20,000 nucleotides of DNA from an uncultured virus (IMG/VR IMGVR_UViG_3300043469_001223) (Duplodnaviria; Heunggongvirae; Uroviricota; Caudoviricetes), in the IMG/VR virus record IMGVR_UViG_3300043469_001223; one strand, given 5' to 3'. The notes under the pieces were generated by a model, which was given only the letters and a program-made list of their open reading frames with translations, had not been told where the DNA came from and ran no database searches. A program made the translations under genes and the position numbers. Of the stretch, positions 10,211 to 20,000 are shown in pieces. How positions within the stretch are numbered: position 1 is the stretch's first letter; each line of letters opens with the position of its first letter.

Positions 10211-10239
10211 TTGACAACAATGCTAAATAACTGTATAAT
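10211..10239 (+). promoter_or_regulatory. Sigma70 promoter P2 of the tRNA array
   Basis: Perfect TTGACA-17nt-TATAAT. Confidence 0.85.
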
Positions 10240-10470: not shown

Positions 10471-10509
10471 AAGGACCCTAGGATTAAAAACCCTGGGGTT
10501 TTTTGTTTT
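10471..10509 (+). terminator. Intrinsic terminator (attenuator)
   Basis: GGACCCTAGG-9nt-CCTGGGGTTT hairpin running into TTTTTTGTTTT. Confidence 0.8.
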
Positions 10510-10521
10510 CCGCAAGGAAGA

Positions 10522-10671
10522 ATGACAGATTTGAAGAGACAAGCTGAGTTTACAAAAGCGCATACTTTAACTAAACAAGATCTTCGCAAGATGATTTTGG
10601 AAAAGTTACAACGTGCAACTGCGTATTACGAAGCAAGTAGGAAGCGAGAGATTGCTCAAGGGCGGTCGTAG
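10522..10671 (+). CDS. Hypothetical 49-aa basic protein, first gene after attenuator
   Basis: AAGGAAG SD; MTDLKRQAEFTKAHTLTKQDLRKMILEKLQRATAYYEASRKREIAQGRS. Confidence 0.55.
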   Translation: MTDLKRQAEFTKAHTLTKQDLRKMILEKLQRATAYYEASRKREIAQGRS

Positions 10672-10783
10672 ATCGCAAAGTGTAATATAGTACGGGAACG
10701 AGGCCCGGGGAACGCACTTAAAACATGTTCTAAACGGGCGGACTAGTGGATGGCTTATCCTTATGTGGATAAAAAAATACTAG

Positions 10784-10856
10784 TTATTAAAGCAAATTGG
10801 TACCTGCTGACTCTGAATCAGAACAGGACGCATAGCGTAACAGTTTGTTTTAATAA
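10784..10856 (+). ncRNA. Stem-enclosed RNA with Gln(CUG)-type anticodon stem-loop
   Basis: TTATTAAAGCAAATTG/CAGTTTGTTTTAATAA stem; inside CTGA-CTCTGAA-TCAG. Confidence 0.55.
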
Positions 10857-10885
10857 GCACTTTCGAAAGAGAGTGTTAACAATTT

Positions 10886-10974
10886 GGAGCTTGTCCCCCA
10901 TTGCCAGCTGTAACCTGGTAGCCATTATTAAGTGGGGTGGCTGGCAAGAGGTTCAATTCCTTCAGGCTCCACCA
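10886..10974 (+). tRNA. Atypical tRNA-Tyr(GUA) lacking a D-arm
   Basis: 8-bp acceptor GGAGCTTG/CAGGCTCC, loop CTGTAAC, long variable arm, GGTTCAATTCC, ACCA. Confidence 0.6.
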
Positions 10975-10981
10975 ATTTTAT

Positions 10982-11057
10982 CTCGCATTCGGTTAGCGGC
11001 TATGCCACCTGGTTTGGGGCCAGGATTTCGAAGGTTCGAGTCCTTCATGCGAGACCA
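10982..11057 (+). tRNA. tRNA-Pro(UGG)
   Basis: Cloverleaf, loop TTTGGGG, CCA. Confidence 0.9.
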
Positions 11058-11066
11058 AGTTTAAAT

Positions 11067-11158
11067 GGAAAGTAATGCAGCGGGGTTGGTCCTGCGACCA
11101 GCCTTGAAAACTGGGTTCTCAGAAATGGGATGGGGTTCGACTCCTCTGCTTTCCGCCA
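11067..11158 (+). tRNA. tRNA-Ser(UGA)
   Basis: Loop CTTGAAA, long variable arm, GCCA. Confidence 0.88.
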
Positions 11159-11164
11159 AGACAA

Positions 11165-11193
11165 TTGACAAATTCTACATAAGATTGTATAAT
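11165..11193 (+). promoter_or_regulatory. Sigma70 promoter
   Basis: TTGACA-17nt-TATAAT. Confidence 0.8.
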
Positions 11194-11201
11194 TACATTA
11201 T

Positions 11202-11317
11202 GCGACCGTAAGTGGAATATGGCAGACCTCCCGTTATGCTCATAGCATAGGTCAGGGGAAGGGGCACATAACATAGTTACCGTGCTCTTGTAGGTTCGAG
11301 ACCTACCGGTCGTACCA
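11202..11317 (+). tRNA. Oversized (116 nt) tRNA-like gene, Leu-type body, CAU loop on extended arm
   Basis: Acceptor GCGACCG/CGGTCGT-ACCA, T-arm GTAGG-TTCGAGA-CCTAC, TATG-CTCATAG-CATA hairpin. Confidence 0.55.
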
Positions 11318-11321
11318 GTTT

Positions 11322-11384
11322 TAGGATCAGTTCAGCAAACTTAAAAACTTTTTTATTATTCAAAAAAACCAAAGTTGATCCTGT
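11322..11384 (+). ncRNA. TAGG/CAGCAA family RNA, copy A
   Basis: TAGGATCA..CAGCAA..TGATCCTG; T6/A6 hairpin with 7-nt loop ATTATTC. Confidence 0.65.
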
Positions 11385-11392
11385 TTTATTAT

Positions 11393-11467
11393 GTATCCCT
11401 AGTGTCAGCGGCAGCACGCCGGTCTCCAAAACCGTTAGGCTTGGTTCAAATCCAAGGGGGTATGCCA
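11393..11467 (+). tRNA. tRNA-Trp(CCA)
   Basis: Loop CTCCAAA, GCCA. Confidence 0.88.
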
Positions 11468-11471
11468 GTTT

Positions 11472-11529
11472 TAGGATGCGTCCAGCAAATCAAAAAATTC
11501 AACTTTTAATTGAAAAATAAGCATCCTGT
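11472..11529 (+). ncRNA. TAGG/CAGCAA family RNA, copy B (Lys UUU anticodon stem-loop)
   Basis: TAGGATGC..CAGCAA..TTCAA-CTTTTAA-TTGAA..GCATCCTG. Confidence 0.7.
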
Positions 11530-11536
11530 TTTTTGT

Positions 11537-11610
11537 TCCCGGATTGTGTAATGGTAGCACAACAGACTTTGACTCTGTTAGCCTAGGTTCGATCCCTAGT
11601 CCGGGTGCCA
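11537..11610 (+). tRNA. tRNA-Gln(UUG)
   Basis: Loop CTTTGAC, GCCA. Confidence 0.9.
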
Positions 11611-11633
11611 ATATTTTGTTAGACTTCTTAGGT

Positions 11634-11704
11634 GTGGCTATAGTGTAATGGTAGCACTACATGTTGTGACCTTGTCAGTACGGGTTCAAATCCCGTTAGT
11701 CACC
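11634..11704 (+). tRNA. tRNA-His(GUG), no encoded G-1 or CCA
   Basis: Acceptor GTGGCTA/TAGTCAC, loop TTGTGAC, C73 followed by CCT. Confidence 0.82.
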
Positions 11705-11719
11705 CCTAAGCAGTTTATT

Positions 11720-11751
11720 CCTCTTGTAGTTAAATGGTATAACAATCGCTT
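11720..11751 (+). pseudogene. Orphan 5' half of a tRNA
   Basis: CCTCTTG-TA-GTTA-AATGGTA-TAAC-A-ATCGC-TT, with no T-arm or 3' acceptor strand following. Confidence 0.65.
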
Positions 11752-11764
11752 TCCTGGCGAGCGT

Positions 11765-11772
11765 TATAAATA
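11765..11772 (+). promoter_or_regulatory. T4-like late promoter for the endonuclease
   Basis: TATAAATA then AGGAG SD and ATG 11789. Confidence 0.65.
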
Positions 11773-11788
11773 CTTGTAGGAGAACACT

Positions 11789-12190
11789 ATGAGTATATCA
11801 AACGAAAAAGGTGAAATAGGAGAAGCAGCATTTGTGCTCGTTTCTGCCAAAAGAGGATATTGGACTGGCAAAATGCCACAAGGTTGTCCTTATGATTATG
11901 TGTTAGATAGACACGACGGTAAACTTTTACGAATTCAAGTTAAGTTTAGATCGTTAGAAAGTAACGGAATAGTTACAATTAAACTATCTCAAAACACATT
12001 TACAAATAGAGTTTCTTACAATGAAAGTAACATCGATTATATTGCAGTCTATGTAAATGAATTAGATAAAGTATATCTCGTTCCTATTGCAGAAATATGC
12101 GATGTAAAAGAAGTTAAACTGCGATGTGTAGAATCAACAAAAAGAAAAGATAAAAACTCTCGTATAATAACAGAATACGCAGAGTGGTAA
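11789..12190 (+). CDS. PD-(D/E)XK putative homing endonuclease (PDDEXK_5 / I-Ssp6803I-like)
   Basis: KGEIGE..PYDYVLD..RIQVK..Y..IDYIAVY..VYLVP motif order. Confidence 0.8.
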   Translation: MSISNEKGEIGEAAFVLVSAKRGYWTGKMPQGCPYDYVLDRHDGKLLRIQVKFRSLESNGIVTIKLSQNTFTNRVSYNESNIDYIAVYVNELDKVYLVPIAEICDVKEVKLRCVESTKRKDKNSRIITEYAEW

Positions 12191-12195
12191 TTTAT

Positions 12196-12270
12196 GGCCA
12201 CGTAACTCAGAGGCAGAGTACCGTCTTGATAAGGCGGGAGTCGACATTTCGAAATTGTCCGTGGCTACCA
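12196..12270 (+). tRNA. tRNA-Ile(GAU)
   Basis: Loop TTGATAA, ACCA; T53-T61 in place of G53-C61. Confidence 0.85.
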
Positions 12271-12277
12271 ATTTTAT

Positions 12278-12356
12278 CTGTGTGTAATGTCAGTCAGGTC
12301 AGACGGCCGGCCTTGGAAGTCGGAGGTCGCAGGTTCGAATCCTGCCACACAGACCA
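12278..12356 (+). tRNA. tRNA-Pro(UGG), A37 variant
   Basis: Loop CTTGGAA, ACCA. Confidence 0.85.
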
Positions 12357-12362
12357 GTTTAT

Positions 12363-12439
12363 GCATCGGTGACAGAGCGGCCAATGTAGCGGATTGCAAA
12401 TCCGTCCAGTCGTGGGTTCGAGTCCCACCCGATGTTCCA
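12363..12439 (+). tRNA. tRNA-Cys(GCA)
   Basis: Loop TTGCAAA, TCCA. Confidence 0.9.
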
Positions 12440-12446
12440 GTTTATT

Positions 12447-12522
12447 GCCCTTGAAGCCTTTAATGGATGAGGTCCTGTCTTGTAAGCAGGGGAAGTCGGT
12501 TCGATTCCGGACTGGGGCACCA
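12447..12522 (+). tRNA. tRNA-Thr(UGU)
   Basis: Loop CTTGTAA, ACCA; irregular T/acceptor stems. Confidence 0.8.
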
Positions 12523-12529
12523 ATACAAT

Positions 12530-12605
12530 GCAACTTTAGCTGATGTGGTCATAGCGGTGGTCTGAAGAGCCATTGAAGTAGGTTCGATCCCTACAGGTTG
12601 CACCA
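12530..12605 (+). tRNA. tRNA-Phe(GAA), G37 variant
   Basis: Loop CTGAAGA, ACCA. Confidence 0.85.
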
Positions 12606-12612
12606 ATTTTAT

Positions 12613-12688
12613 CCTTGAGTTAAGCGGGGCCGTATACACCCTTGCCAATAGTTAGTAATGTGTACTGCGACATACACCTCGAGGGCCA
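12613..12688 (+). ncRNA. tRNA-sized RNA with acceptor stem and CCA but non-canonical arms
   Basis: CCTTGAG/CTCGAGG-GCCA, 76 nt, GTGTA-CTGCGACA-TACAC in T-arm position. Confidence 0.55.
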
Positions 12689-12695
12689 AGTTTAT

Positions 12696-12769
12696 GCGTG
12701 GTTCGTTTAATGGTAAGATCACTGGCTTCCACCCAGTAGTTAAGGGTTCGATTCCCTTACCCCGCACCA
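12696..12769 (+). tRNA. tRNA-Gly(UCC), A73 variant
   Basis: Loop CTTCCAC, ACCA. Confidence 0.85.
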
Positions 12770-12772
12770 GTT

Positions 12773-12836
12773 TAGGATACTTACAGCAAACCAAAATATT
12801 TCACTTTTTGGCTGTGAAAAGCAAACAGTATCCTGT
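12773..12836 (+). ncRNA. TAGG/CAGCAA family RNA, copy C (UUG-centred loop)
   Basis: TAGGATACT..CAGCAA..TTTCAC-TTTTTGGCT-GTGAAA..AGTATCCTG. Confidence 0.68.
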
Positions 12837-12880
12837 TTAATAGTGTTGTTAAAATACAACAAAAATAGTTGCAAAGACTA

Positions 12881-12952
12881 TTGACAAGGAGGTAAAACCT
12901 TGCTATAATTAACACATACACTAAGCAATTAGATGTAAATGTTCTTTAAAAA
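12881..12952 (+). promoter_or_regulatory. Sigma70 promoter with downstream hairpin and boxA-like site
   Basis: TTGACA-17-TATAAT (12881-12909); CTAA-GCAA-TTAG; TGTTCTTTAAAAA (12940-12952). Confidence 0.78.
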
Positions 12953-12968
12953 TTTACAGTATAAGAAG

Positions 12969-13081
12969 TTCTTATACACATACACACAAATGCTTAGGCC
13001 AAGCAGATAGAGGTGGTATCTAGCTGGACGAGAAGTCCAGTTGGCAGGTTCGAGTCCTGTGAGTGTGTAGTTGTATAAGAA
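12969..13081 (+). ncRNA. tRNA-like RNA with long variable arm inside extended stem, no CCA
   Basis: TTCTTATACA/TGTATAAGAA; arms GCTT/AAGC, AGATA/TATCT, AGCTGGAC/GTCCAGTT, GCAGG-TTCGAGT-CCTGT. Confidence 0.6.
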
Positions 13082-13085
13082 TTTT

Positions 13086-13162
13086 ACTTCGTTCGTCTAC
13101 GTGGTTTAGGACGCTAGCCTTTCAAGTTGGAAAAACGGGTTCGAGTCCCGTACGGAGTACCA
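13086..13162 (+). tRNA. tRNA-Glu(UUC)
   Basis: Loop CTTTCAA, ACCA. Confidence 0.88.
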
Positions 13163-13165
13163 AGT

Positions 13166-13264
13166 TAACAACACTCAACGCACTGTAGGATGGCATTCAG
13201 TCTCCCTGCCAGCGAGGGATGAGAGTGGCAGGCATAACTGGTTAATGTTATGCTTGTGTTATTA
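13166..13264 (+). ncRNA. Unidentified structured RNA
   Basis: TAACAACAC/GTGTTATTA closing stem; TCCCT/AGGGA, CTGCCA/TGGCAG, GGCATAAC/GTTATGCT. Confidence 0.45.
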
Positions 13265-13269
13265 GTTTT

Positions 13270-13345
13270 GCCACAGTAGTCCTCTGGGTAGGGCACCGGA
13301 TTGTCTATCCGATTTAGGCGGGTTCGATTCCCGTCTGTGGCGCCA
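13270..13345 (+). tRNA. tRNA-Asp(GUC), U37
   Basis: Loop TTGTCTA, GCCA. Confidence 0.85.
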
Positions 13346-13351
13346 AGTTAT

Positions 13352-13438
13352 GGAGATGTAGGAAAATTGGTAACCCCAGTGGACTGTAAATCCGCCGCCC
13401 GAAAGGCACTACTGGTTCGACTCCAGTCGTCTCCACCA
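13352..13438 (+). tRNA. tRNA-Tyr(GUA)
   Basis: Loop CTGTAAA, variable arm, ACCA. Confidence 0.9.
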
Positions 13439-13445
13439 AGTTAAT

Positions 13446-13520
13446 GGTCCTGTCATATAGTGGTTATTATACCGGCCTGTCTAGTCGGATATCGGGGTTC
13501 GATTCCCCGCAGGATCGCCA
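13446..13520 (+). tRNA. tRNA-Asp(GUC), U37
   Basis: Loop CTGTCTA, GCCA. Confidence 0.88.
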
Positions 13521-13528
13521 AAATTTAT

Positions 13529-13607
13529 TCCGTGAAATCCAAGCATGGTGCAAGGACTTGACTGTTAATCAATGATTAGGTGAGTTCGATCCTCACACAC
13601 GGAGCCA
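13529..13607 (+). tRNA. tRNA-Asn(GUU)
   Basis: Loop CTGTTAA, GCCA. Confidence 0.85.
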
Positions 13608-13616
13608 ATACAATTT

Positions 13617-13691
13617 GGGGGCAGCAGAGGGCTGCGGCGTTGCCTTGCAAGCATCGTGACTAGAGGGGTTCGATACCCCCGGCCTCCACCA
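13617..13691 (+). tRNA. tRNA-Ala(UGC), reduced D-arm
   Basis: Loop CTTGCAA, G3-U70, ACCA. Confidence 0.75.
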
Positions 13692-13699
13692 AACATTTT

Positions 13700-13775
13700 G
13701 CCACAATAGCTCCAATGGTAGAGCAGCGGATTGAAAATTCGTGTGTTACTGGTTCGAGTCCAGTTTGTGGCACCA
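13700..13775 (+). tRNA. tRNA-Phe(GAA)
   Basis: Loop TTGAAAA, ACCA. Confidence 0.9.
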
Positions 13776-13838
13776 AACAAGGGCCGTGAGATAATATCAA
13801 GACGATCGGCGCTGGAGCACCTACCCAGCACAAATTTT

Positions 13839-13899
13839 TAGGATAGCAACAGCAAAATCAAAAATTTCACTGTTAATGAAACCAAAAATGCTATCCTGT
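13839..13899 (+). ncRNA. TAGG/CAGCAA family RNA, copy D (Asn GUU anticodon stem-loop)
   Basis: TAGGATAGCA..CAGCAA..TTTCA-CTGTTAA-TGAAA..TGCTATCCTG. Confidence 0.7.
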
Positions 13900-13906
13900 T
13901 TTATTT

Positions 13907-13981
13907 GCCCGCATAGTATAATGGATAATACACTGGTCTACGAAACCGGGGATTGTGGTTCGATTCCATATGTGGGCACCA
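13907..13981 (+). tRNA. tRNA-Arg(ACG)
   Basis: Loop CTACGAA, ACCA. Confidence 0.9.
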
Positions 13982-13988
13982 AGTTAAT

Positions 13989-14066
13989 GGGCGATGACTG
14001 TTGTAAAGGATAACAGGCGGTAGCAACCCTGCCGTGACAGTGGTTCGATTCCACTATCGTCCACCA
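13989..14066 (+). tRNA. tRNA with non-canonical anticodon loop (GCAACCC)
   Basis: Good acceptor GGGCGAT/ATCGTCC-ACCA and T-arm; no U33. Confidence 0.6.
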
Positions 14067-14069
14067 AGT

Positions 14070-14279
14070 TTTGTAAGTGTCAGCAAGTAGAGTCACGCTG
14101 TCTAGGTATGTTCGAACTACCAAAACAGTAGAAGGTAGCGGGTTCGATCCCCGTCCGATCGGAAGATCGGAATACAGTTGGAGTATCGTCTGGACAAAGC
14201 CCAAGTGACGTATCTTGACCCTGCCGGCTTTATTACAAGGGAAAATGGTTGCGATATGAGGGACGCAACAGCTTACAAA
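14070..14279 (+). ncRNA. ~210-nt structured RNA with two T-loop hairpins
   Basis: TTTGTAAG/CTTACAAA ends, GTCAC/GTGAC, GGTA-TGTTCGAAC-TACC, GCGGG-TTCGATC-CCCGT. Confidence 0.6.
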
Positions 14280-14289
14280 TTCAATGCGG

Positions 14290-14318
14290 TTGACAACTAC
14301 CCTAAAAGGTTGTATAAT
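14290..14318 (+). promoter_or_regulatory. Sigma70 promoter
   Basis: TTGACA-17nt-TATAAT. Confidence 0.82.
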
Positions 14319-14347
14319 AGAAACTTAAACACAAAAGAGGTAATGAC

Positions 14348-14371
14348 ATGAAACGTTCAGGTAAACGATAG
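14348..14371 (+). CDS. Putative leader mini-ORF MKRSGKR
   Basis: GAGGT SD 6 nt upstream; ATG AAA CGT TCA GGT AAA CGA TAG; stop abuts switchable hairpin. Confidence 0.55.
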   Translation: MKRSGKR

Positions 14372-14443
14372 TGTCAATCTTAGATCCCGTATATGGTCTA
14401 GGGTTGGCACATTAAAGACAAATTTAATATGCAACAACCCTAG
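14371..14443 (+). promoter_or_regulatory. Mutually exclusive hairpins overlapping tRNA-Lys 5' end
   Basis: 14371-14386 pairs with 14395-14410, or 14398-14416 pairs with 14423-14443. Confidence 0.65.
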
Positions 14444-14514
14444 CTGGCGTTTAACGGTAGCGTACTCGGCTCTTAACCGATGAGGTGTCAGTTCGAATCT
14501 GACGCTAGGGACCA
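14438..14514 (+). tRNA. tRNA-Lys(CUU)
   Basis: CCCTAGC/GCTAGGG-ACCA, loop CTCTTAA. Confidence 0.85.
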
Positions 14515-14519
14515 TATAT

Positions 14520-14597
14520 GGGATTGTAGTGTCAACGGTTTAGCACAGCGGACTTTTAATCCGCCAGGTTCCGGTTCGAATCCGGACAGTCCTACCA
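14520..14597 (+). tRNA. tRNA-Lys(UUU)
   Basis: Loop CTTTTAA, ACCA. Confidence 0.9.
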
Positions 14598-14690
14598 TAT
14601 CAAAGCTCACTAGAACTAGTGTGGGCATCCGCTTCCTCACGTAGTGCAGGAGGCGTAACGGTTCGATTCCGCTAGTGTGTTTTGATATGG
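14595..14690 (+). ncRNA. Stem-enclosed RNA with T-arm
   Basis: CCATATCAAAGCTCACTAG/CTAGTGTGTTTTGATATGG; CGG-TTCGATT-CCG. Confidence 0.55.
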
Positions 14691-14763
14691 TAACGTAGCA
14701 TAATGGTTGTGCAACACCTTCATACGGTGCCCGGTGTGAGTTCGAATCTCACCGTTACTACCA
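14689..14763 (+). tRNA. tRNA-Met(CAU)
   Basis: Loop TTCATAC, ACCA. Confidence 0.85.
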
Positions 14764-14768
14764 AACAT

Positions 14769-14844
14769 GTCCCATTCATCTAGAGGCCTAGGATAGTACC
14801 CTTTCACGGTATTTACAGCGGTTCGAATCCGCTATGGGACGCCA
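14769..14844 (+). tRNA. tRNA-Glu(UUC)
   Basis: Loop CTTTCAC, GCCA. Confidence 0.9.
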
Positions 14845-14846
14845 AG

Positions 14847-14993
14847 TTTTGAGATAGACGTTGAAGTAGAGTCCCTTGTGCGCTAGGTCCCTATTCTTGA
14901 GACTGACACACCAGTAGCAACACAAGGTAGTTTAAACTCCTTCATACGAGACAAGCCAGTGAGTCCTTGAGAAAGATAGCTGGTCTCTCAAAA
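14847..14993 (+). ncRNA. Unidentified structured RNA
   Basis: TTTTGAGA/TCTCAAAA ends; TGAAG..GAGT/ACTC..CTTCA; CCTTGTG/CACAAGG; CCAG/CTGG. Confidence 0.5.
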
Positions 14994-15001
14994 ACCTATT
15001 T

Positions 15002-15079
15002 GCCCCTGTAGCCCAATTGGTAGCAGGCAACAGTCTTAAACATTGTCAAGTACCGGTTCGAATCCGGTCAGGGGTACCA
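15002..15079 (+). tRNA. tRNA with UAA (Leu) anticodon but short variable loop
   Basis: ACAGT-CTTAAAC-ATTGT, ACCA. Confidence 0.78.
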
Positions 15080-15085
15080 AACAAT

Positions 15086-15175
15086 AGTGAGTTGCCAGAG
15101 AGGCCTATTGGCGCATCTTGGAAAGGTGATGGTTCCGTAAGGGGCACGAGAGTTCGAATCTCTCACTCACTGCCA
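15086..15175 (+). tRNA. tRNA-Ser(GGA)
   Basis: Loop TTGGAAA, long variable arm, GCCA. Confidence 0.9.
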
Positions 15176-15176
15176 C

Positions 15177-15251
15177 ACCGCTTTCGTATAATGGATAATA
15201 CGGCAGGCTTCTACCCTGCGAATATGGGTTCGATTCCTGTAGGCGGTACCA
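15177..15251 (+). tRNA. tRNA-Arg(UCU)
   Basis: Loop CTTCTAC, ACCA. Confidence 0.9.
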
Positions 15252-15256
15252 CATAT

Positions 15257-15331
15257 CGGTCTTTGGTGAAATGGATATCATCTCGGTCTTCGAAACCGAG
15301 GGTGGGAGTTCGATCCTCTCAAGACCGGCCA
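15257..15331 (+). tRNA. tRNA-Arg(UCG)
   Basis: Loop CTTCGAA, GCCA. Confidence 0.9.
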
Positions 15332-15334
15332 TAT

Positions 15335-15409
15335 CTCGCTATAGTACAATGGATAGTACGGGGTCCTCCTAAGACTTAAATGTAGGTTCGATTCCTACTG
15401 GCGGGACCA
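15335..15409 (+). tRNA. tRNA-Arg(CCU)
   Basis: Loop CTCCTAA, ACCA. Confidence 0.9.
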
Positions 15410-15449
15410 AGTTTTATATACAGTTAATGATAAATATTTGTTTACTATT

Positions 15450-16940
15450 ATGAATGTTATTATTATACAAACAATTAGCGATTATCGGGGCGCCGCTCCT
15501 AGATCAATTGGGGGTCACCAATTAGCTTGGTATTTAAGACTCTTTGGTTATACAGTACAGGTTATAAATTATTCTGAACCAATTTTTACATTGGATAAAG
15601 TAAATGCACTGTTTGAAAAATTTGTAACAGATGAAACCAAAGTTATAGGCCTTGGAGGAATTTTATTAGAAGCTAACGATGTATTCTTTTCTATATTCAG
15701 TTCAGCAATTAAACAACTTAAAACAAAACATCCAAATTTAAAAATAATAGCCGGTGGCCCATCTGTTGGTATAATTAAAGGAAAATTAAAAAAAACACTT
15801 GATTATTATTTTACAGGTCATGCTGAAAATACAATGTTACAATTTTGCAATTGGATTTTTAAAAAAGGTCCACAGCCATTTGTCGAAATAGGTGCAGACG
15901 GTTACAAAATTGTAAAAGAATCTTCGTATCAAAGTAATGAAGGATTTTCAATTGAGCAGTGTAATTTTAGGTGGCATGACAGTGATGCTATACAGCCAAA
16001 TGAAGCATTGCCGTTAGAAACAACCAGGGGATGCATTTTTAAGTGTAAATTCTGTCAATATCCGTTAATTGGAAAAAATAAAAAAGATTTCCTTAAACCG
16101 ATGGAAAATATAAGAGATGAGTTACTTGACAATTACGAAAGATTTGGAACAACGAATTATTATATTTTAGACGATACATTTAATGCAGACACCGAAAGAT
16201 TGGAAGAATTTGCCAAAATGGTATCATCCTTACCTTTTAAAATTAAATATGCAACTTATTTAAGATTAGATTTAATTGAGGCTCATCGTCATACTGAAGA
16301 TATGTTATTGGAAAGCGGTCTTTATGGAGCTTTTTTTGGAATAGAAAGTTTTAATAAAGATGCATCTGCTTTGGTAGGAAAGGCATTTAGCGGAAAAAAA
16401 GCCAAAGACTATTTGCCTCATTTGTTACAGGACAGATGGCAGGGAAAAGTAAAAGAACATCTTAGTTTTATCGCAGGCATTCCTCCAGAAACATTAGATG
16501 ATTTAAAAGAAACTCATAACTGGTGTGTCGATAATAAAATAACATCCTGGAAAATAATTCCCTTATTACTTAATAAACCTGATACTTCGGTATTCACTAG
16601 TGAGTTTGAACGTAATGCAGAAAAATATGGATTTGAAATAATACAGGTATTGCCCGAGTCTTACGCTATTGGTAAGCGTCTCTGGAGACAAACTTGGTGG
16701 AAGCATTCATCAGGTCTTACATTTTTAGATGTAGTAAAATGGACAAATTTGCTAACTGAAAGCGCGGCCCCGCATGTTAAAAGAGGCGGCTGGAACGCAG
16801 TTGAAGTCCTACAATTTGGATACACTGTTGAAGAAATAGATAGACTGCGATGGGGCGAATACAACTTAGACAATGAATGGCAAAATAGAGTTCACTTGTT
16901 TGTACAAACGTATTATAATGATCTCATGTCTCTAAAATAA
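15450..16940 (+). CDS. B12-binding-domain-type radical SAM protein
   Basis: KIIAGGP..GHAE N-domain, ETTRGCIFKCKFC, YILDDTFN, FFGIES; ATG at 15450 after ATAAATA. Confidence 0.88.
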   Translation: MNVIIIQTISDYRGAAPRSIGGHQLAWYLRLFGYTVQVINYSEPIFTLDKVNALFEKFVTDETKVIGLGGILLEANDVFFSIFSSAIKQLKTKHPNLKIIAGGPSVGIIKGKLKKTLDYYFTGHAENTMLQFCNWIFKKGPQPFVEIGADGYKIVKESSYQSNEGFSIEQCNFRWHDSDAIQPNEALPLETTRGCIFKCKFCQYPLIGKNKKDFLKPMENIRDELLDNYERFGTTNYYILDDTFNADTERLEEFAKMVSSLPFKIKYATYLRLDLIEAHRHTEDMLLESGLYGAFFGIESFNKDASALVGKAFSGKKAKDYLPHLLQDRWQGKVKEHLSFIAGIPPETLDDLKETHNWCVDNKITSWKIIPLLLNKPDTSVFTSEFERNAEKYGFEIIQVLPESYAIGKRLWRQTWWKHSSGLTFLDVVKWTNLLTESAAPHVKRGGWNAVEVLQFGYTVEEIDRLRWGEYNLDNEWQNRVHLFVQTYYNDLMSLK

Positions 16941-16976
16941 ACATTTAGATTTGATTCCTAGTGATAACACAAAAAT

Positions 16977-17050
16977 GCTCTTGTAGTACAATGGTAGTAC
17001 ACTGTCTTGGTACGACAGCAATCAAAGTTCGATTCTTTGCTTGAGCACCA
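16977..17050 (+). tRNA. tRNA-Thr(GGU)
   Basis: Loop TTGGTAC, ACCA. Confidence 0.85.
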
Positions 17051-17070
17051 AAAATATTTTTAAATACCTG

Positions 17071-17139
17071 TTGACACACACTGAGAAAGACAGTATAATT
17101 TATACATACGCTGCTAATAACAGCACTGTTCTTTAAAAA
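17071..17139 (+). promoter_or_regulatory. Sigma70 promoter with downstream hairpin and boxA-like site
   Basis: TTGACA-17-TATAAT (17071-17099); GCTG/CAGC hairpin; TGTTCTTTAAAAA (17127-17139). Confidence 0.78.
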
Positions 17140-17156
17140 TGTAAAGTTAGTATTTT

Positions 17157-17240
17157 GCGAGAGTGGAGAAATGGTATACTCAGCAGACTTAAAATCTGCC
17201 GCCGAAAGGCATACGGGTTCGAGTCCCGTCTCTCGCACCA
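17157..17240 (+). tRNA. tRNA-Leu(UAA)
   Basis: Loop CTTAAAA, variable arm, ACCA. Confidence 0.92.
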
Positions 17241-17360
17241 TTAATTGAATCCTTTGCAAGCACAGAGGTTTGATCATACGTTATGTAACCTATTCAATAA
17301 ACCGTCAACTCGAGTAAAGCGTGTTGAGGATAGGCATATAGTGTAGAGGATTCAACTAAT
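17241..17360 (+). ncRNA. Unidentified structured RNA
   Basis: TTGAATCCTTTGCA/TGTAGAGGATTCAA closing stem; CCTATTC/GGATAGG inside. Confidence 0.5.
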
Positions 17361-17368
17361 GGAAATTT

Positions 17369-17458
17369 GGTGCGGTCCTATAATGGTATTAGAGCGGATT
17401 GCTAATCCGTCGCTCGGCGTAATCCGGGTTCTGAGTTCGAGTCTCAGTCGCACCGCCA
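17369..17458 (+). tRNA. tRNA-Ser(GCU)
   Basis: Loop TTGCTAA, long variable arm, GCCA. Confidence 0.9.
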
Positions 17459-17467
17459 AACATACAT

Positions 17468-17559
17468 GCCAGCGAGACTTGGTAGTCAGAGAGGCCTTAT
17501 AGACCTTTTAGCGCCAGATTAGCGTTCTTGAGAGGGTTCGATCCCCTCCGCTGGTACCA
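17468..17559 (+). tRNA. Atypical tRNA with UAU anticodon, mini D-arm and long variable arm
   Basis: GCCAGCG/CGCTGGT-ACCA, GACT-TGGT-AGTC, loop CTTATAG, AGCGC/GCGTT arm. Confidence 0.7.
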
Positions 17560-17568
17560 ATGATTGAT

Positions 17569-17645
17569 GCGCCTATAGCTCAGTTGGTCAGAGCAGAGGA
17601 CTCATAATCCTTTGGTCCTAGGTTCAAGTCCTAGTGGGCGCACCA
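17569..17645 (+). tRNA. tRNA-CAU (probably Ile2)
   Basis: Loop CTCATAA, ileX-like body, ACCA. Confidence 0.85.
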
Positions 17646-17662
17646 AGTTATTAAAATAGAGG

Positions 17663-17691
17663 TTGACAGGATTATAAATATCCTGTATAAT
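17663..17691 (+). promoter_or_regulatory. Sigma70 promoter with nested TATAAATA late promoter
   Basis: TTGACA-GGAT-TATAAATA-TCCTG-TATAAT. Confidence 0.8.
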
Positions 17692-17699
17692 AAAAATTT

Positions 17700-17783
17700 G
17701 CCCCGGTGGTGTAATGGTAGCCACGCTGGTCTTAGAAGCCAGTGCCGAGAGGCGTGTCGGTTCGAGTCCGACCTGGGGCACCA
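17700..17783 (+). tRNA. tRNA-Leu(UAG)
   Basis: Loop CTTAGAA, variable arm, ACCA. Confidence 0.92.
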
Positions 17784-17866
17784 TATTAAAACACATACAG
17801 ATCCGCCCTCTAGTAGGGGAGATAGCGACTAGCGTTGAAGGACTGTTTAAATGTGTTTTAATATGG
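17781..17866 (+). ncRNA. Stem-enclosed RNA
   Basis: Perfect 16-bp CCATATTAAAACACAT/ATGTGTTTTAATATGG. Confidence 0.55.
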
Positions 17867-17939
17867 GCTGATAGTGATAATGGGAGCACAGTGGCTTTGC
17901 AAGCCTCGGGTGGGAGTTCGATCCTCCCTCGGTCCACCA
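17865..17939 (+). tRNA. tRNA-Ala(UGC)
   Basis: Loop TTTGCAA, G3-U70, ACCA. Confidence 0.88.
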
Positions 17940-17960
17940 TAAAATTTTTTAAGGAATAAA

Positions 17961-18134
17961 ATGAGAGCAAGAACAGGTTCAACTTTTAGGTTGAGTAAAA
18001 GAGCAAAGACTATGATAGCATTGATGAGTTTTAAGAACGATCAAGACCGTCATGGATTCAAAAATGCAATGATAGATGCTCAAGTGGCTGCGAACATTGT
18101 TCCGCGATCCTCTAAAGAGCGAGACGCAAAGTAA
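17961..18134 (+). CDS. Hypothetical 57-aa basic protein
   Basis: AAGGA SD; MRARTGSTFRLSKRAKTMIALMSFKNDQDRHGFKNAMIDAQVAANIVPRSSKERDAK. Confidence 0.7.
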   Translation: MRARTGSTFRLSKRAKTMIALMSFKNDQDRHGFKNAMIDAQVAANIVPRSSKERDAK

Positions 18135-18141
18135 AGTATAT

Positions 18142-18217
18142 TCCCTGGTAGCTCAGCGGTAGTAGCAGCAGACTGTTAATCTGTTGGTCGCAAGTTCGAT
18201 CCTTGCCCGGGGAGCCA
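18142..18217 (+). tRNA. tRNA-Asn(GUU)
   Basis: Loop CTGTTAA, GCCA. Confidence 0.92.
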
Positions 18218-18244
18218 AATTTTTTAAACCAACGAAAGTAATAG

Positions 18245-18475
18245 ATGATTAAAGTTATTAAAGTTCCCTTTTCTCCACAGAACATCGACACAGACAAATG
18301 TGTCGAAGCCGTGGGCAATAGATTTGATCTAGTTCTGATTGCCAGTGCTCGAGTTCGCGAACTGCGACGTGGACATGCTAAACAAGTTAGCGGAACCAAC
18401 AGTGCCACTATTACTGCCTTGCAAGAAATTGAAGCAGGTAAAATTGGTAGAGAGTATCTTAAAAAGGTTCGGTAA
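18245..18475 (+). CDS. rpoZ: RNA polymerase omega subunit homologue
   Basis: VGNRFDLVLIASARVREL..TALQEIEAGKI matches the omega signature. Confidence 0.88.
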   Translation: MIKVIKVPFSPQNIDTDKCVEAVGNRFDLVLIASARVRELRRGHAKQVSGTNSATITALQEIEAGKIGREYLKKVR

Positions 18476-18741
18476 TGTCAAAAGGTTCAAGAGCTCGTCC
18501 GTTTAGCGTTAGCCAGAATACATTTGCTAACAACTATGACGCTATTTTTGGAAAGAAAGATATGCAAGTAAGAGTACAAGAAAATGCAGATGAGATTGGA
18601 AAATGCGGTTGTGGTCGTAGTCCGACTGGTAAGTGTGTCGGTTGGCATGGTCTAACAGAAGCTGACTTTCAATCAAAGCTAGCATCATATCTAGCAGATG
18701 AACAGTCAAAGAATGTAAGTGATTCCACTCAGGGCGGTTAA
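18475..18741 (+). CDS. Small protein with CDGSH-type Fe-S motif
   Basis: CGCGRSPTGKCVGWH; TAATG overlap with rpoZ. Confidence 0.7.
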   Translation: MSKGSRARPFSVSQNTFANNYDAIFGKKDMQVRVQENADEIGKCGCGRSPTGKCVGWHGLTEADFQSKLASYLADEQSKNVSDSTQGG

Positions 18742-18750
18742 ATATATTGC

Positions 18751-18825
18751 GCCCTGTTAGCACAGTGGCAATGCGCCGCTCTTGTAAAGCGGAGATCGTC
18801 TGTTCGATTCAGACACGGGGCACCA
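18751..18825 (+). tRNA. tRNA-Thr(UGU)
   Basis: Loop CTTGTAA, ACCA. Confidence 0.88.
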
Positions 18826-18831
18826 AGTTTT

Positions 18832-18894
18832 TAGGTTAATTACAGCTATCAAAAATATGGCGACTGCTAGGTCATTAAACTAGTATTAACCTGT
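18832..18894 (+). ncRNA. TAGG/CAGCAA family RNA, copy E (CT-GCT-A loop)
   Basis: TAGGTTAAT..CAGCTA..ATGGC-GACTGCTAG-GTCAT..ATTAACCTG. Confidence 0.65.
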
Positions 18895-18900
18895 TGAAAA

Positions 18901-19102
18901 CCCGTCTTACTATTTCTACGTAACGAAATAGCGTCTCTGTAACGATAGACCAGAGGGTACACTAGGACCTGACCTCACAGTCCCTATTTAAGGGATACTG
19001 GAAACTGCCTAGGGTGAGGATTAACAGCCTTTCCAGAAGAAGAAAATGTTATGGACGTAGCAACAGACCAGTTTAGGGCTCATGTGGTGTGAGTAGCTAG
19101 AC
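18901..19102 (+). ncRNA. Unidentified pseudoknot-rich RNA region
   Basis: Crossing pairings CTAGG/CCTAG, CCTCAC/GTGAGG, CTGGAAA/TTTCCAG plus flanking hairpins. Confidence 0.5.
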
Positions 19103-19211
19103 ACTTTATTGAAACGCATTGTGGAGAGCACTGTGTAGATTGGGAAGGTTTGATTCCGACTCACTACATCACTCGGTATCCTGCGGCCGCAACAGTGTGT
19201 TTCAATAAGGT
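19103..19211 (+). ncRNA. Stem-enclosed RNA with T-loop-like hairpin
   Basis: TTATTGAAACGCATTGT/ACAGTGTGTTTCAATAA; GG-TTTGATT-CC. Confidence 0.55.
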
Positions 19212-19212
19212 A

Positions 19213-19335
19213 ACTTTATTAAAATATATTCTTTGTCTACGTAGCCCAAACCCGGGGGAGCCTTGCAAAGGAAATGTGCCTAGCACACGGTACAACAAGC
19301 ATAAGACACTTGTTGGGAGTATGTTTTAATAAAGT
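19213..19335 (+). ncRNA. Stem-enclosed multi-hairpin RNA
   Basis: ACTTTATTAAAATATATTC/GAGTATGTTTTAATAAAGT; CC-TTGCAAA-GG inside. Confidence 0.55.
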
Positions 19336-19337
19336 AT

Positions 19338-19411
19338 GCGGGGTTCGTATAGTGGTAATACCTGAGCCTTCCAAGCTCATGCTGAGAGTTCGATTCTCTT
19401 ACCCCGCTCCA
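19338..19411 (+). tRNA. tRNA-Gly(UCC)
   Basis: Loop CTTCCAA, TCCA. Confidence 0.9.
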
Positions 19412-19418
19412 TATTTTT

Positions 19419-19494
19419 GCCTGGTTGCGCAGAGAGGTTATGCATCTCCTTTACACGGAGAACGATGTCAGTTCGAGTCTGACACCAGGTACCA
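19419..19494 (+). tRNA. tRNA-Val(UAC)
   Basis: Loop TTTACAC, ACCA. Confidence 0.88.
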
Positions 19495-19501
19495 TTTAAA
19501 T

Positions 19502-19579
19502 CGGAATGTAGCGCAGTCTGGTTAGCGCATCGCGTTTGGGACGCGAGGGTCGTAGGTTCGAATCCTACTATTCCGACCA
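19502..19579 (+). tRNA. tRNA-Pro(UGG)
   Basis: Loop TTTGGGA, ACCA. Confidence 0.92.
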
Positions 19580-19646
19580 TAAATACAAGAAAGAATTCAC
19601 CATGGCACACGGTGTATAATAGGATAAGTAGTGTGGCAAAGAATAT

Positions 19647-19720
19647 AGCGGGCAGGGCGGCCACCACTCCAGTCTCATAAGCTCGGAGCATCCCAGGTTC
19701 AAATCCTGGGCCCGCATCCA
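19647..19720 (+). tRNA. Atypical tRNA-CAU (initiator-like 1-72 mismatch, reduced D-arm)
   Basis: AGCGGGC/GCCCGCA-TCCA, loop CTCATAA, GGTTCAAATCC. Confidence 0.7.
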
Positions 19721-19724
19721 ATTT

Positions 19725-19842
19725 TAGGATACATGCAGCAACGTCTTAAATGACATGTTGGTTCGATTCCAACTCCACGCTTTTGCGTAGATCGCTCAAT
19801 GGTAGAGCAATGGCTTCCAAGCCATCGAAAAAGGTATCCTGT
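19725..19842 (+). ncRNA. TAGG/CAGCAA family RNA, copy F, containing circularly permuted tRNA-Gly-like domain
   Basis: TAGGATAC..CAGCAA..T-arm, looped acceptor stem, D-arm, anticodon arm..GTATCCTG. Confidence 0.72.
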
Positions 19843-19976
19843 TTTATTTTGTTATTCCGGACGCCCTGAAAGGGGAGGTGGTATCGAGCAGTGCGGCAGT
19901 ATAGCTGCCATGGCGTCGTGAGGTTGTAGAACAATAAACTGATAAAATCTACAATATAACAAATGGTTTGACCATT

Positions 19977-20000
19977 TAGGTTCTTTTCAGCAATCTTATT
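19977..20000 (+). ncRNA. TAGG/CAGCAA family RNA, copy G (cut by window end)
   Basis: TAGGTTCTTTT-CAGCAA with the same spacing as other copies. Confidence 0.5.

Follow-up and report, generated by a model that had tools for sequence, protein, structure and literature searches.

A candidate ribosome-driven RNA switch in front of a lysine tRNA gene pair of uncultured jumbo phages

In the attenuators of amino-acid operons (trp, his, leu, thr, pheA), a short leader frame with codons for the regulated amino acid precedes four RNA segments that form mutually exclusive helices (1:2, 2:3 and 3:4), and the position of the ribosome decides between them: a stall leads to 2:3, and full translation leads to 3:4. 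The translational attenuation of ermC and cat also uses a leader frame and alternative hairpins, works with no terminator, and determines whether a site on the same RNA is accessible. T-boxes sense one tRNA species through a codon-like specifier and a complementarity of the UGGN-ACCA type. In tRNA precursors, pairing of the leader with the pre-tRNA strongly lowers RNase P rates, and in some polycistronic precursors such inhibitory pairing sets the order of processing (PMC10731613). Here we analyzed a leader in 20,000 nucleotides (nt) of DNA from an uncultured virus of the Caudoviricetes (IMG/VR record IMGVR_UViG_3300043469_001223); this whole stretch is called the window. The leader lies between tRNA-Arg(ACG) and a tRNA-Lys(CUU)/tRNA-Lys(UUU) pair, and contains a very short open reading frame (mini-ORF) and two competing hairpins. 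We propose, with a probability of roughly 60%, that it is a four-segment, trp-attenuator-like, ribosome-driven RNA switch whose last helix blocks the maturation of tRNA ends and not transcription.

The initial annotation of this locus had listed a promoter, a Shine-Dalgarno (SD) sequence, a frame encoding MKRSGKR, two alternative hairpins and the two lysine tRNAs, and all of these are present in the sequence at the positions it gave, on the + strand. The promoter is of the sigma-70 type with 12/12 matches (TTGACA at 14290-14295, a 17-nt spacer, TATAAT at 14313-14318), and the SD core GAGG (14337-14340) is located 7 nt upstream of the ATG. The mini-ORF (14348-14371; ATG AAA CGT TCA GGT AAA CGA TAG) encodes lysine by AAA at 14351-14353 and 14363-14365, and ends with TAG at 14369-14371. 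Segment 1, TGACAT (14344-14349), includes the A and T of the ATG and can pair with GTGTCA (14371-14376), forming a helix termed H0. Segment 2 (14371-14386), whose first base is the G of the stop codon, is the 5' arm of hairpin H1; the conserved loop CCGTATAT follows (14387-14394), and then segment 3 (14394-14410), composed of UGGUC (14394-14398) and GGTTGGCAC. H1 (14371-14386 with 14395-14410) has 16 base pairs (bp), including four G.U pairs, and a calculated energy of -20.9 kcal/mol (RNAfold). Segment 3 is a shared strand that can pair either with segment 2 or with segment 4 and the tRNA ends. Segment 4, CAACCCTAG (14435-14443), is the 3' arm of H2, and its part at 14438-14443 is identical with bases 1-6 of tRNA-Lys(CUU). 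H2 (14398-14406 with 14435-14443; -19.5 kcal/mol, RNAfold) encloses GCA/TGC and an inner hairpin, ATTAAA/TTTAAT (14411-14428), which is found in both states. Because 14398-14410 is common to H1 and H2, the two hairpins are mutually exclusive. tRNA-Lys(CUU) (14438-14514) starts with C1 C2 and ends with GACCA (14510-14514), and tRNA-Lys(UUU) (14520-14597) follows 5 nt past its CCA.

The observation is real and far beyond chance, as confirmed by its recurrence in at least 175 variants and by the covariation of both helices. The leader module was found in at least 175 distinct 120-nt cores, on contigs from uncultured viruses and from metagenomes that reach 524,565 bases in length. A relative reached through the radical SAM protein encoded at 15438-16940 (35% identity) likewise has the leader in front of a Lys(CUU)/Lys(UUU) pair, with a mini-ORF that reads MKRAKR and contains synonymous changes. 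Pattern scans gave 58 true loci out of 59 in one scan and 12 further variants in another, and at least 120 metagenome stretches were retrieved in this way. A second family (family B, 89 viral loci) was found after the loose ends of RNA contigs had shown a variant of segment 3, which reads GGTTGGCAC in family A and GGATGGCAC in family B. The retrieval patterns were pieces of segment 2, the loop or segment 3, and never included the codons of the mini-ORF, the SD, segment 4, the identity of the tRNA or, for family A, UGGUC. Chance matches were filtered from the 15-mer and loop-anchored scans, in which 34 of 110 stretches were true and 40 of 52 new cores were due to chance. Further variants of segment 3 (GGNVGG) were also considered and rejected, as all four matches were chance occurrences in G+C-rich coding DNA.

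Searches for the element elsewhere were largely negative. No match to the region was obtained in 50,697 GenBank phage records by megablast and blastn, and an expectation value (E) of up to 10 yielded 18 short chance matches. The covariance models of Rfam 15 matched only tRNAs at the gathering score in 10500-20000, and in 14280-14450 no relevant family, T-box included, was matched at E ≤10, where weak hits to DGCR5 and sn2417 are noise. Among 185,579 bacterial and archaeal species genomes, six stretches were detected: three were chance matches and three were on short contigs of metagenome-assembled genomes that consist of tRNA arrays. As the taxon labels of these three contigs all differ, they do not indicate a host.

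The mini-ORF looks translated. An in-frame ATG to TAG is present in 173 of the 175 unique cores, with 49 distinct ORF sequences; the length is 6, 7, 8 or 9 codons only, and every change in length is a multiple of three. The entropy at the first, second and third codon positions is.53/.68/.94,.73/.81/1.16 and.22/.57/1.12 in the three length classes, and thus is highest at the third position in each. An SD core occurs 4-16 nt upstream of the ATG in 165 of 171 variants, and it does so across four upstream contexts: 61 variants have a promoter-like site, 29 have a tRNA whose end is less than 60 nt away, 25 have a longer ORF that terminates at the ATG, and 66 have none of the three. The dedicated promoter that had been described is therefore a feature of the window, and not a part of the module, as a promoter-like site is seen in only 61 of the 171 variants. 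Regarding the two exceptions to the in-frame TAG, in one (L430) the TAG is replaced and the frame is 12 nt longer, and in the other (L508) a TAA comes one base earlier. As a separate observation, the longer ORF (at least 25 codons) in 25 of the 171 relatives ends in a TGA that overlaps the SD/ATG of the mini-ORF; the example in L004 (3836-3962) encodes about 41 amino acids (aa) and is rich in K, W and Q. In these relatives the mini-ORF may be translationally coupled to the longer upstream ORF, instead of being served by its own promoter.

One lysine codon of the mini-ORF does not vary: in 173/173 sequences AAA, and never AAG, is the second-to-last sense codon, and AAA is also present at the homologous place in both exceptions. 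Codon 2 is AAA in 156 sequences, AAG in 16 and AAC in one, and thus encodes lysine in 172/173. The last sense codon occurs in 11 forms, and the inner codons are variable. The comparative alignment that had been suggested as a check therefore found both the frame and its lysine codons to be kept. The description of a Lys/Arg mini-ORF holds for lysine, and not for arginine, which is common but not invariant (MKASAKQ, MKDTAKQ, MKPTAKL and MNSRKM). AAA is decoded by tRNA-Lys(UUU), which is the second tRNA of the module.

The leader occurs exclusively with tRNA-Lys genes. Of 164 variants examined, 153 had a tRNA-Lys(CUU) call by ARAGORN immediately downstream of the leader, in most cases with tRNA-Lys(UUU) next. 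In the scan of 59 loci, tRNA-Lys(CUU) was called 63-97 nt past the TAG in 51, and a further six had tRNA-Lys(UUU) at +147 to +150 and, between it and the leader, a CUU-type sequence that was not called; the remaining two were one truncated locus and one chance match. In family B, tRNA-Lys(CUU) is downstream in 62 of 65 unique variants. The tRNAs upstream vary by locus (Cys, His, Phe, Gln, Arg, Ile, Asp, Thr, Leu, Ser), as do the tRNAs downstream of the pair. Within the window, none of the other promoters precedes an SD and a mini-ORF, and the leader stands before no other tRNA of the 38-tRNA array. The bodies of tRNA-Lys(CUU) belong to several very different sequence types; nevertheless, C1-G72 and C2-G71 are kept across them, with a start of CC in 150/153 and an end of GACCA in 151/153.

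These data bear on the possibility that the leader is only an aid to folding or processing and does not sense anything. Translation, whatever the short frame, would then open H1 at a set time, segment 3 would transiently hold the ends of an unusual tRNA (C1-G72, low score), and the lysine codons would be incidental. tRNA-Lys(CUU) of the window is indeed atypical: it scores 33.8 bits with the Rfam tRNA model, where the 32 other matched tRNAs score 46.7-73.2, and its alignment to the model leaves out the first and last two acceptor pairs. In addition, AAA is a common and efficient second codon that favours initiation. However, the second-to-last AAA is invariant in all 173 sequences and is never replaced by AAG while its neighbours vary freely, and lysine is the only specificity in the array that has the leader, so we consider a pure folding aid quite improbable. 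The leader is not likely to be a decayed tRNA-Lys, as local alignments to both tRNAs score 12-30 and the tRNA model has no hit on the leader; a 9-base identity between the leader and the D-arm of tRNA-Lys(UUU) is found in the window alone among 9 variants aligned.

Covariation was counted on an alignment of 149 variants. The base of H1 (9 bp) is paired in 100% of 1332 cells, compared with 22-49% when the partner is slid, and three pairs are changed on both sides; H2 is paired in 91.9% of 1003 cells, compared with 20-52% in slid controls. The most informative columns are 51, 81 and 122, one in each of segments 2, 3 and 4, where 79 sequences have A,T,A, 65 have T,A,T and 5 have other combinations. 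The segment 3 column is thus T in family A and A in family B, and its partners in segments 2 and 4 both change from A to T; the segment 3:segment 4 pair 81-122 is UA in 78 and AU in 65 sequences. A second, smaller event combines GATTGG with CAATC and a matching T in segment 2, in three unique cores. Both pairings are therefore clearly kept by selection, to judge from these sequence patterns, H1 more strictly than H2. Both helices of the initial annotation were accordingly found to be conserved and to covary with their shared strand.

The extent of H2 differs among relatives. In the window it takes in the first six bases of tRNA-Lys(CUU), as had been described, and in a sample limited to family A, the five-pair core that reaches tRNA bases 1-2 (or 1) is formed in 56/56 sequences, whereas the pairs to tRNA bases 4-6 are formed in 9-20 of 56. 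We therefore rejected the view that H2 generally has nine bp and takes in six tRNA bases; this long form belongs to the lineage of the window. The inner hairpin is paired in 85% of cells in a MAFFT alignment, with variants such as GTAAA/TTTAC, and the H1 loop is CC(C/T)GTAT in 46/46 true unique cores retrieved by a pattern not requiring the loop. A possible pseudoknot between this loop and the stretch before segment 4 was seen by eye only. Two further observations concern the architecture of single loci. One metagenome contig (L314) carries two complete modules of leader, tRNA-Lys(CUU) and tRNA-Lys(UUU) in tandem, of different subtypes (260-520 and 745-1005). Some loci (L156, L165, L171, L173 and similar ones) have about 30 nt of inserted sequence that forms another AT-rich hairpin between segments 3 and 4; it shifts the tRNA to +95 to +97, and the remainder of the leader is intact.

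Two pairings go beyond the initial annotation. The first, termed helix X, would join UGGUC to the 3' end of the tRNA, as UGGUC is the exact complement of the encoded end G72-A73-C74-C75-A76. UGGUC is present in 150 of 153 modules, where it is complementary to GACCA and could act in cis on the precursor, and a helix X of 5-8 contiguous bp is possible in the same number (150/153). TGGT is invariant in 56/56 family A sequences, although the motif was not required in their retrieval. When the 5' arm of H1 was blocked, the minimum-energy folds joined segment 3 to segment 4 plus C1 C2 and to GACCA. Helix X is located 6-10 nt upstream of tRNA-Lys(UUU), inside its 5' leader. The second pairing is H0, between segment 1 and the region of the stop codon and segment 2. 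At least 5 contiguous pairs are possible in 157/171 variants, and each of the three types of segment 1 matches this region in its own register. The effect is small, with 6.05 pairs observed against a mean of 5.86 with shuffled partners; H0 appeared unforced in the four OFF-state folds that were printed.

The complementarity of UGGU to ACCA, which resembles the UGGN of the T-box bulge, also raises the possibility of a ribosome-independent sensor, in which AAA would be a specifier read by the anticodon of tRNA-Lys and UGGUC would bind the ACCA of uncharged tRNA-Lys in trans, thereby choosing between H1 and H2. That AAA and UGGUC are both invariant is in line with it. The SD, the ATG, the in-frame TAG, the length steps of three and the third-position variation point instead to translation, and the Rfam search described above matched no T-box. 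The geometry is also wrong, with about 30 nt from AAA to UGGUC and no Stem I platform, and the GG of UGGUC is paired in H1. We regard such a sensor as very improbable.

A classical transcription attenuator, in which H2 would terminate transcription before the tRNA genes, would share the four-segment layout and the leader frame. However, H2 runs directly into the tRNA body with no U-tract, and a terminator scan found no terminator-like site within 14290-14600, in agreement with the earlier statement that the element is not a standard intrinsic terminator. As H2 includes bases of the tRNA, termination would fall inside the tRNA. In addition, two contigs from RNA libraries of two studies cover the leader and the tRNA (14304-14519 and 14289-14563); they are a weak hint against termination, being assemblies that carry no information on ends, strand or level and in which uncovered stretches have no meaning, with DNA carry-over possible. 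This reading is next to negligible.

The balance of the two states was estimated from constrained folds of 151 modules, in which H1 and the acceptor stem were forced for the ON state and the H2 core and helix X for the OFF state, ignoring tertiary structure and modification of the tRNA. The mean energy was -50.6 kcal/mol for ON and -49.6 kcal/mol for OFF, with a difference of +1.0 on average and a median of 1.3. ON and OFF were within 3 kcal/mol in 111/151 modules, and OFF was the lower in 53/151. In this energy model, such near-equality is the balance that a switch needs.

We presume that the proposed switch operates as follows. Segment 1 lies at the start codon, segment 2 starts from the G of TAG, segment 3 is UGGUC..GGWUGGCAC, and segment 4, (C)CAWCC, extends into tRNA bases 1-2. 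Segment 2 paired with segment 3 would give H1; otherwise segment 3 would pair with segment 4 and C1 C2 as H2, UGGUC with the tRNA 3' end as helix X, and segment 1 with segment 2 as H0. In the ON state, H1 would be closed, the start codon and the tRNA ends would be free, the cloverleaf would fold and RNase P would cut. In the OFF state, a ribosome reading through to TAG would open H1 at its foot, since H1 begins with the G of the stop codon, and the freed segment 3 would clamp both ends of the acceptor stem. This would hide the RNase P site, the ACCA end and part of the 5' leader of tRNA-Lys(UUU), and the released segment 2 could pair with segment 1. When Lys-tRNA(UUU) is scarce, uncharged or cleaved, the ribosome would stall at the fixed AAA or at codon 2, H1 would remain closed, and the lysine tRNAs would mature, so that the product, lysine tRNA, would repress its own maturation.

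The spacing of the fixed codon fits this scheme. The fixed AAA is 5 nt upstream of the H1 foot, as measured in the sequence, and with AAA in the A site the first pair of H1 would be about 12 nt from the first P-site base. Unwinding of mRNA by a ribosome takes place about 11-13 nt from the first base in the P site, a spacing also found in frameshift-stimulating structures. A ribosome stalled at AAA would spare H1 because the spacing of about 12 nt is where unwinding starts, and the fixed AAA would be the last position at which a waiting ribosome leaves H1 intact. The minimum of six codons would keep H1 outside the mRNA channel of an initiating ribosome. The ribosome-position logic of the initial annotation thus agrees with the measured spacing, and its reading as a whole is partly supported. 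Translation of the frame in vivo, the sign of the response, the choice of RNase P as the controlled step and the link to host defence discussed below are inferred.

The same two-state switch could also have the opposite sign, with a stall at AAA opening H1, or another output, such as precursor stability, RNase E entry, Rho access or RNA polymerase pausing. The anatomy of the element sets neither the sign nor the regulated step, the figure for the reach of the ribosome on mRNA is a general one, and the conserved H1 loop, which has no role in our model, could be a protein or pause site. On the other hand, the overlap of segment 4 with tRNA bases 1-2 and the match of UGGUC to the tRNA 3' end point to the tRNA ends as the target, and shutting off a missing tRNA during its shortage would be harmful feedback. 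No terminator-like site occurs in the element, although no search for rut-like stretches was made. We consider a reversed sign or a different output unlikely.

Several points weigh against a switch of tRNA end maturation. Translation, stalling, the folds and tRNA output in vivo are deduced at the level of sequence and fold prediction. A single regulatory codon is unusual in leader-peptide control. If the ribosome covered more mRNA than the general figure for unwinding implies, a stall at AAA would open H1 and the logic would be reversed. The independent covariation events are few, comprising one major three-way event (family A versus family B), one minor event and several in H1 only. In the first copy of L314 and in L353, segment 3 has changed together with segment 2 and not with segment 4, leaving H2 at 4 bp. 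The outer helix of H2 is short, 5-7 bp in most relatives. The unconstrained fold of the leader and tRNA is H1 plus the cloverleaf in most sequences, and thus the OFF state may be transient only. Helix X shows no covariation because the tRNA end is invariant, and UGGUC belongs to H1 as well. Finally, the constancy of segment 2, the loop and segment 3 is partly due to construction, as leader motifs retrieved all the relatives.

If the proposed switch operates with the sign given above, it might serve as an inducible counter-defence. A ribosome waiting at a single AAA would test the host tRNA-Lys(UUU); only after cleavage or depletion of this tRNA, as by PrrC- or PARIS-type anticodon nucleases, would H1 be kept and the lysine tRNA pair of the phage be released. 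Lysine tRNA is a repeated target of tRNA-cleaving defences such as PrrC. A toxin that inactivates one tRNA is reported to stall ribosomes at the codons of that tRNA (PMC13096801). Cleavage of host tRNA-Lys as a trigger fits the literature, and for these phages it is speculation; we put forward the counter-defence role tentatively and regard it as rather doubtful.

The remaining observations concern the setting of the element. The window is a 20,000-nt part of a 207,813-base record (40.8% G+C); the record is estimated to be 58% complete, and its source is therefore a jumbo phage. The window has 38 tRNA genes between 10982 and 19720, all on the + strand, interspersed with a few ORFs and six perfect promoter sites. 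These sites (TTGACA-17-TATAAT, + strand) are at 10211, 11165, 12881, 14290, 17071 and 17663, within the 10 kb of the tRNA array, and their sequences suggest that tRNA sub-clusters are driven by many strong host-type promoters. Inside the array lies the gene (15438-16940, +) for a radical SAM protein of 500 aa, which has a weak B12-binding match; its relatives occur in 18 viral loci, of which only some adjoin tRNAs, and it may be a tRNA-modifying enzyme. Other unusual genes of the window, all on the + strand, encode a protein with CHASE2 and adenylate/guanylate cyclase domains (2115-4178), a protein in which F5/8 type C and curlin repeats occur (6-1475), a PD-(D/E)XK endonuclease whose gene lies within the tRNA array (11789-12190), and a small protein that has a match to the RNA polymerase Rpb6/omega family (18245-18475).

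T-arm-like sequences (type GGTTCGATTCC) are also found around the lysine pair, at 13988-14067, about 14075-14170, 14598-14688 and 14845-15001, some with acceptor-like ends and CCA. They were called neither by ARAGORN nor by the Rfam tRNA model; 13988-14063 has a weak match to tRNA-Sec (22.1 bits, below the threshold). A similar uncalled element follows the lysine tRNA pair in relatives, and these elements may be non-canonical or decayed tRNAs. Three related viral contigs (L011, L012 and L013) carry at 826-1264 a gene resembling transfer-messenger RNA (permuted form, tag ending ALAA), 5 kb from the radical SAM homologue.

If the model holds, the position of the ribosome would control tRNA end processing, a new regulated step. 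To our knowledge, tRNA end processing has not been described as regulated by ribosome position. Among the papers listed by searches of full-text literature, which did not extend to subscription journals and old papers on phage T5, there was no report of a leader frame before tRNA genes. If the counter-defence circuit is also true, it would be the first instance of tRNA maturation controlled through translation, and also the first case of a tRNA gene with a built-in sensor of tRNA-targeting immunity. The question of why phages carry tRNAs, and whether they do so as an answer to tRNA-cleaving defences, becomes directly testable. Lysine alone among the 38 tRNAs of the array has a sensor-like leader. 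The module is small (about 100 nt) and abundant, occurring on many contigs of freshwater jumbo phages. Families A and B and the single-helix variants are natural mutants, and a possible tool is a compact reporter of the decoding of one codon.

In comparison with known systems, phage-borne tRNA-Lys has precedents in counter-defence, in T5 tRNA-Lys against PARIS and in PrrC and T4, and no regulatory leader is described for those tRNAs in the portions of the reports available to us. T-boxes are ribosome-free, contain Stem I together with a conserved T-box sequence, and regulate aminoacyl-tRNA synthetase or amino-acid genes, whereas the present element has no Rfam match. The known cases of inhibitory pairing with pre-tRNA are fixed; here the inhibitory helix competes with another one, and its stability would be controlled by the ribosome. 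In ermC and cat, the stall results from a drug and the nascent peptide, and the SD or start of a downstream protein gene is hidden, while here the stall would result from a missing decoding tRNA, the next gene is a tRNA, and its 5' and 3' ends would be hidden by H2 and helix X. The amino-acid attenuators are closest in layout, but the 3:4 helix here has no U-tract and forms no terminator. They have a run of codons and control biosynthetic or aminoacyl-tRNA synthetase genes, whereas this element occurs in phages, has one fixed codon (plus codon 2) in a frame of 6-9 codons, stands before tRNA-Lys(CUU) and tRNA-Lys(UUU), and is proposed to control access to tRNA ends. It thus lacks two defining features of an attenuator, the terminator and the biosynthetic target. 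Leader-peptide control, known for amino-acid and resistance genes, would therefore gain a new target: tRNA genes.

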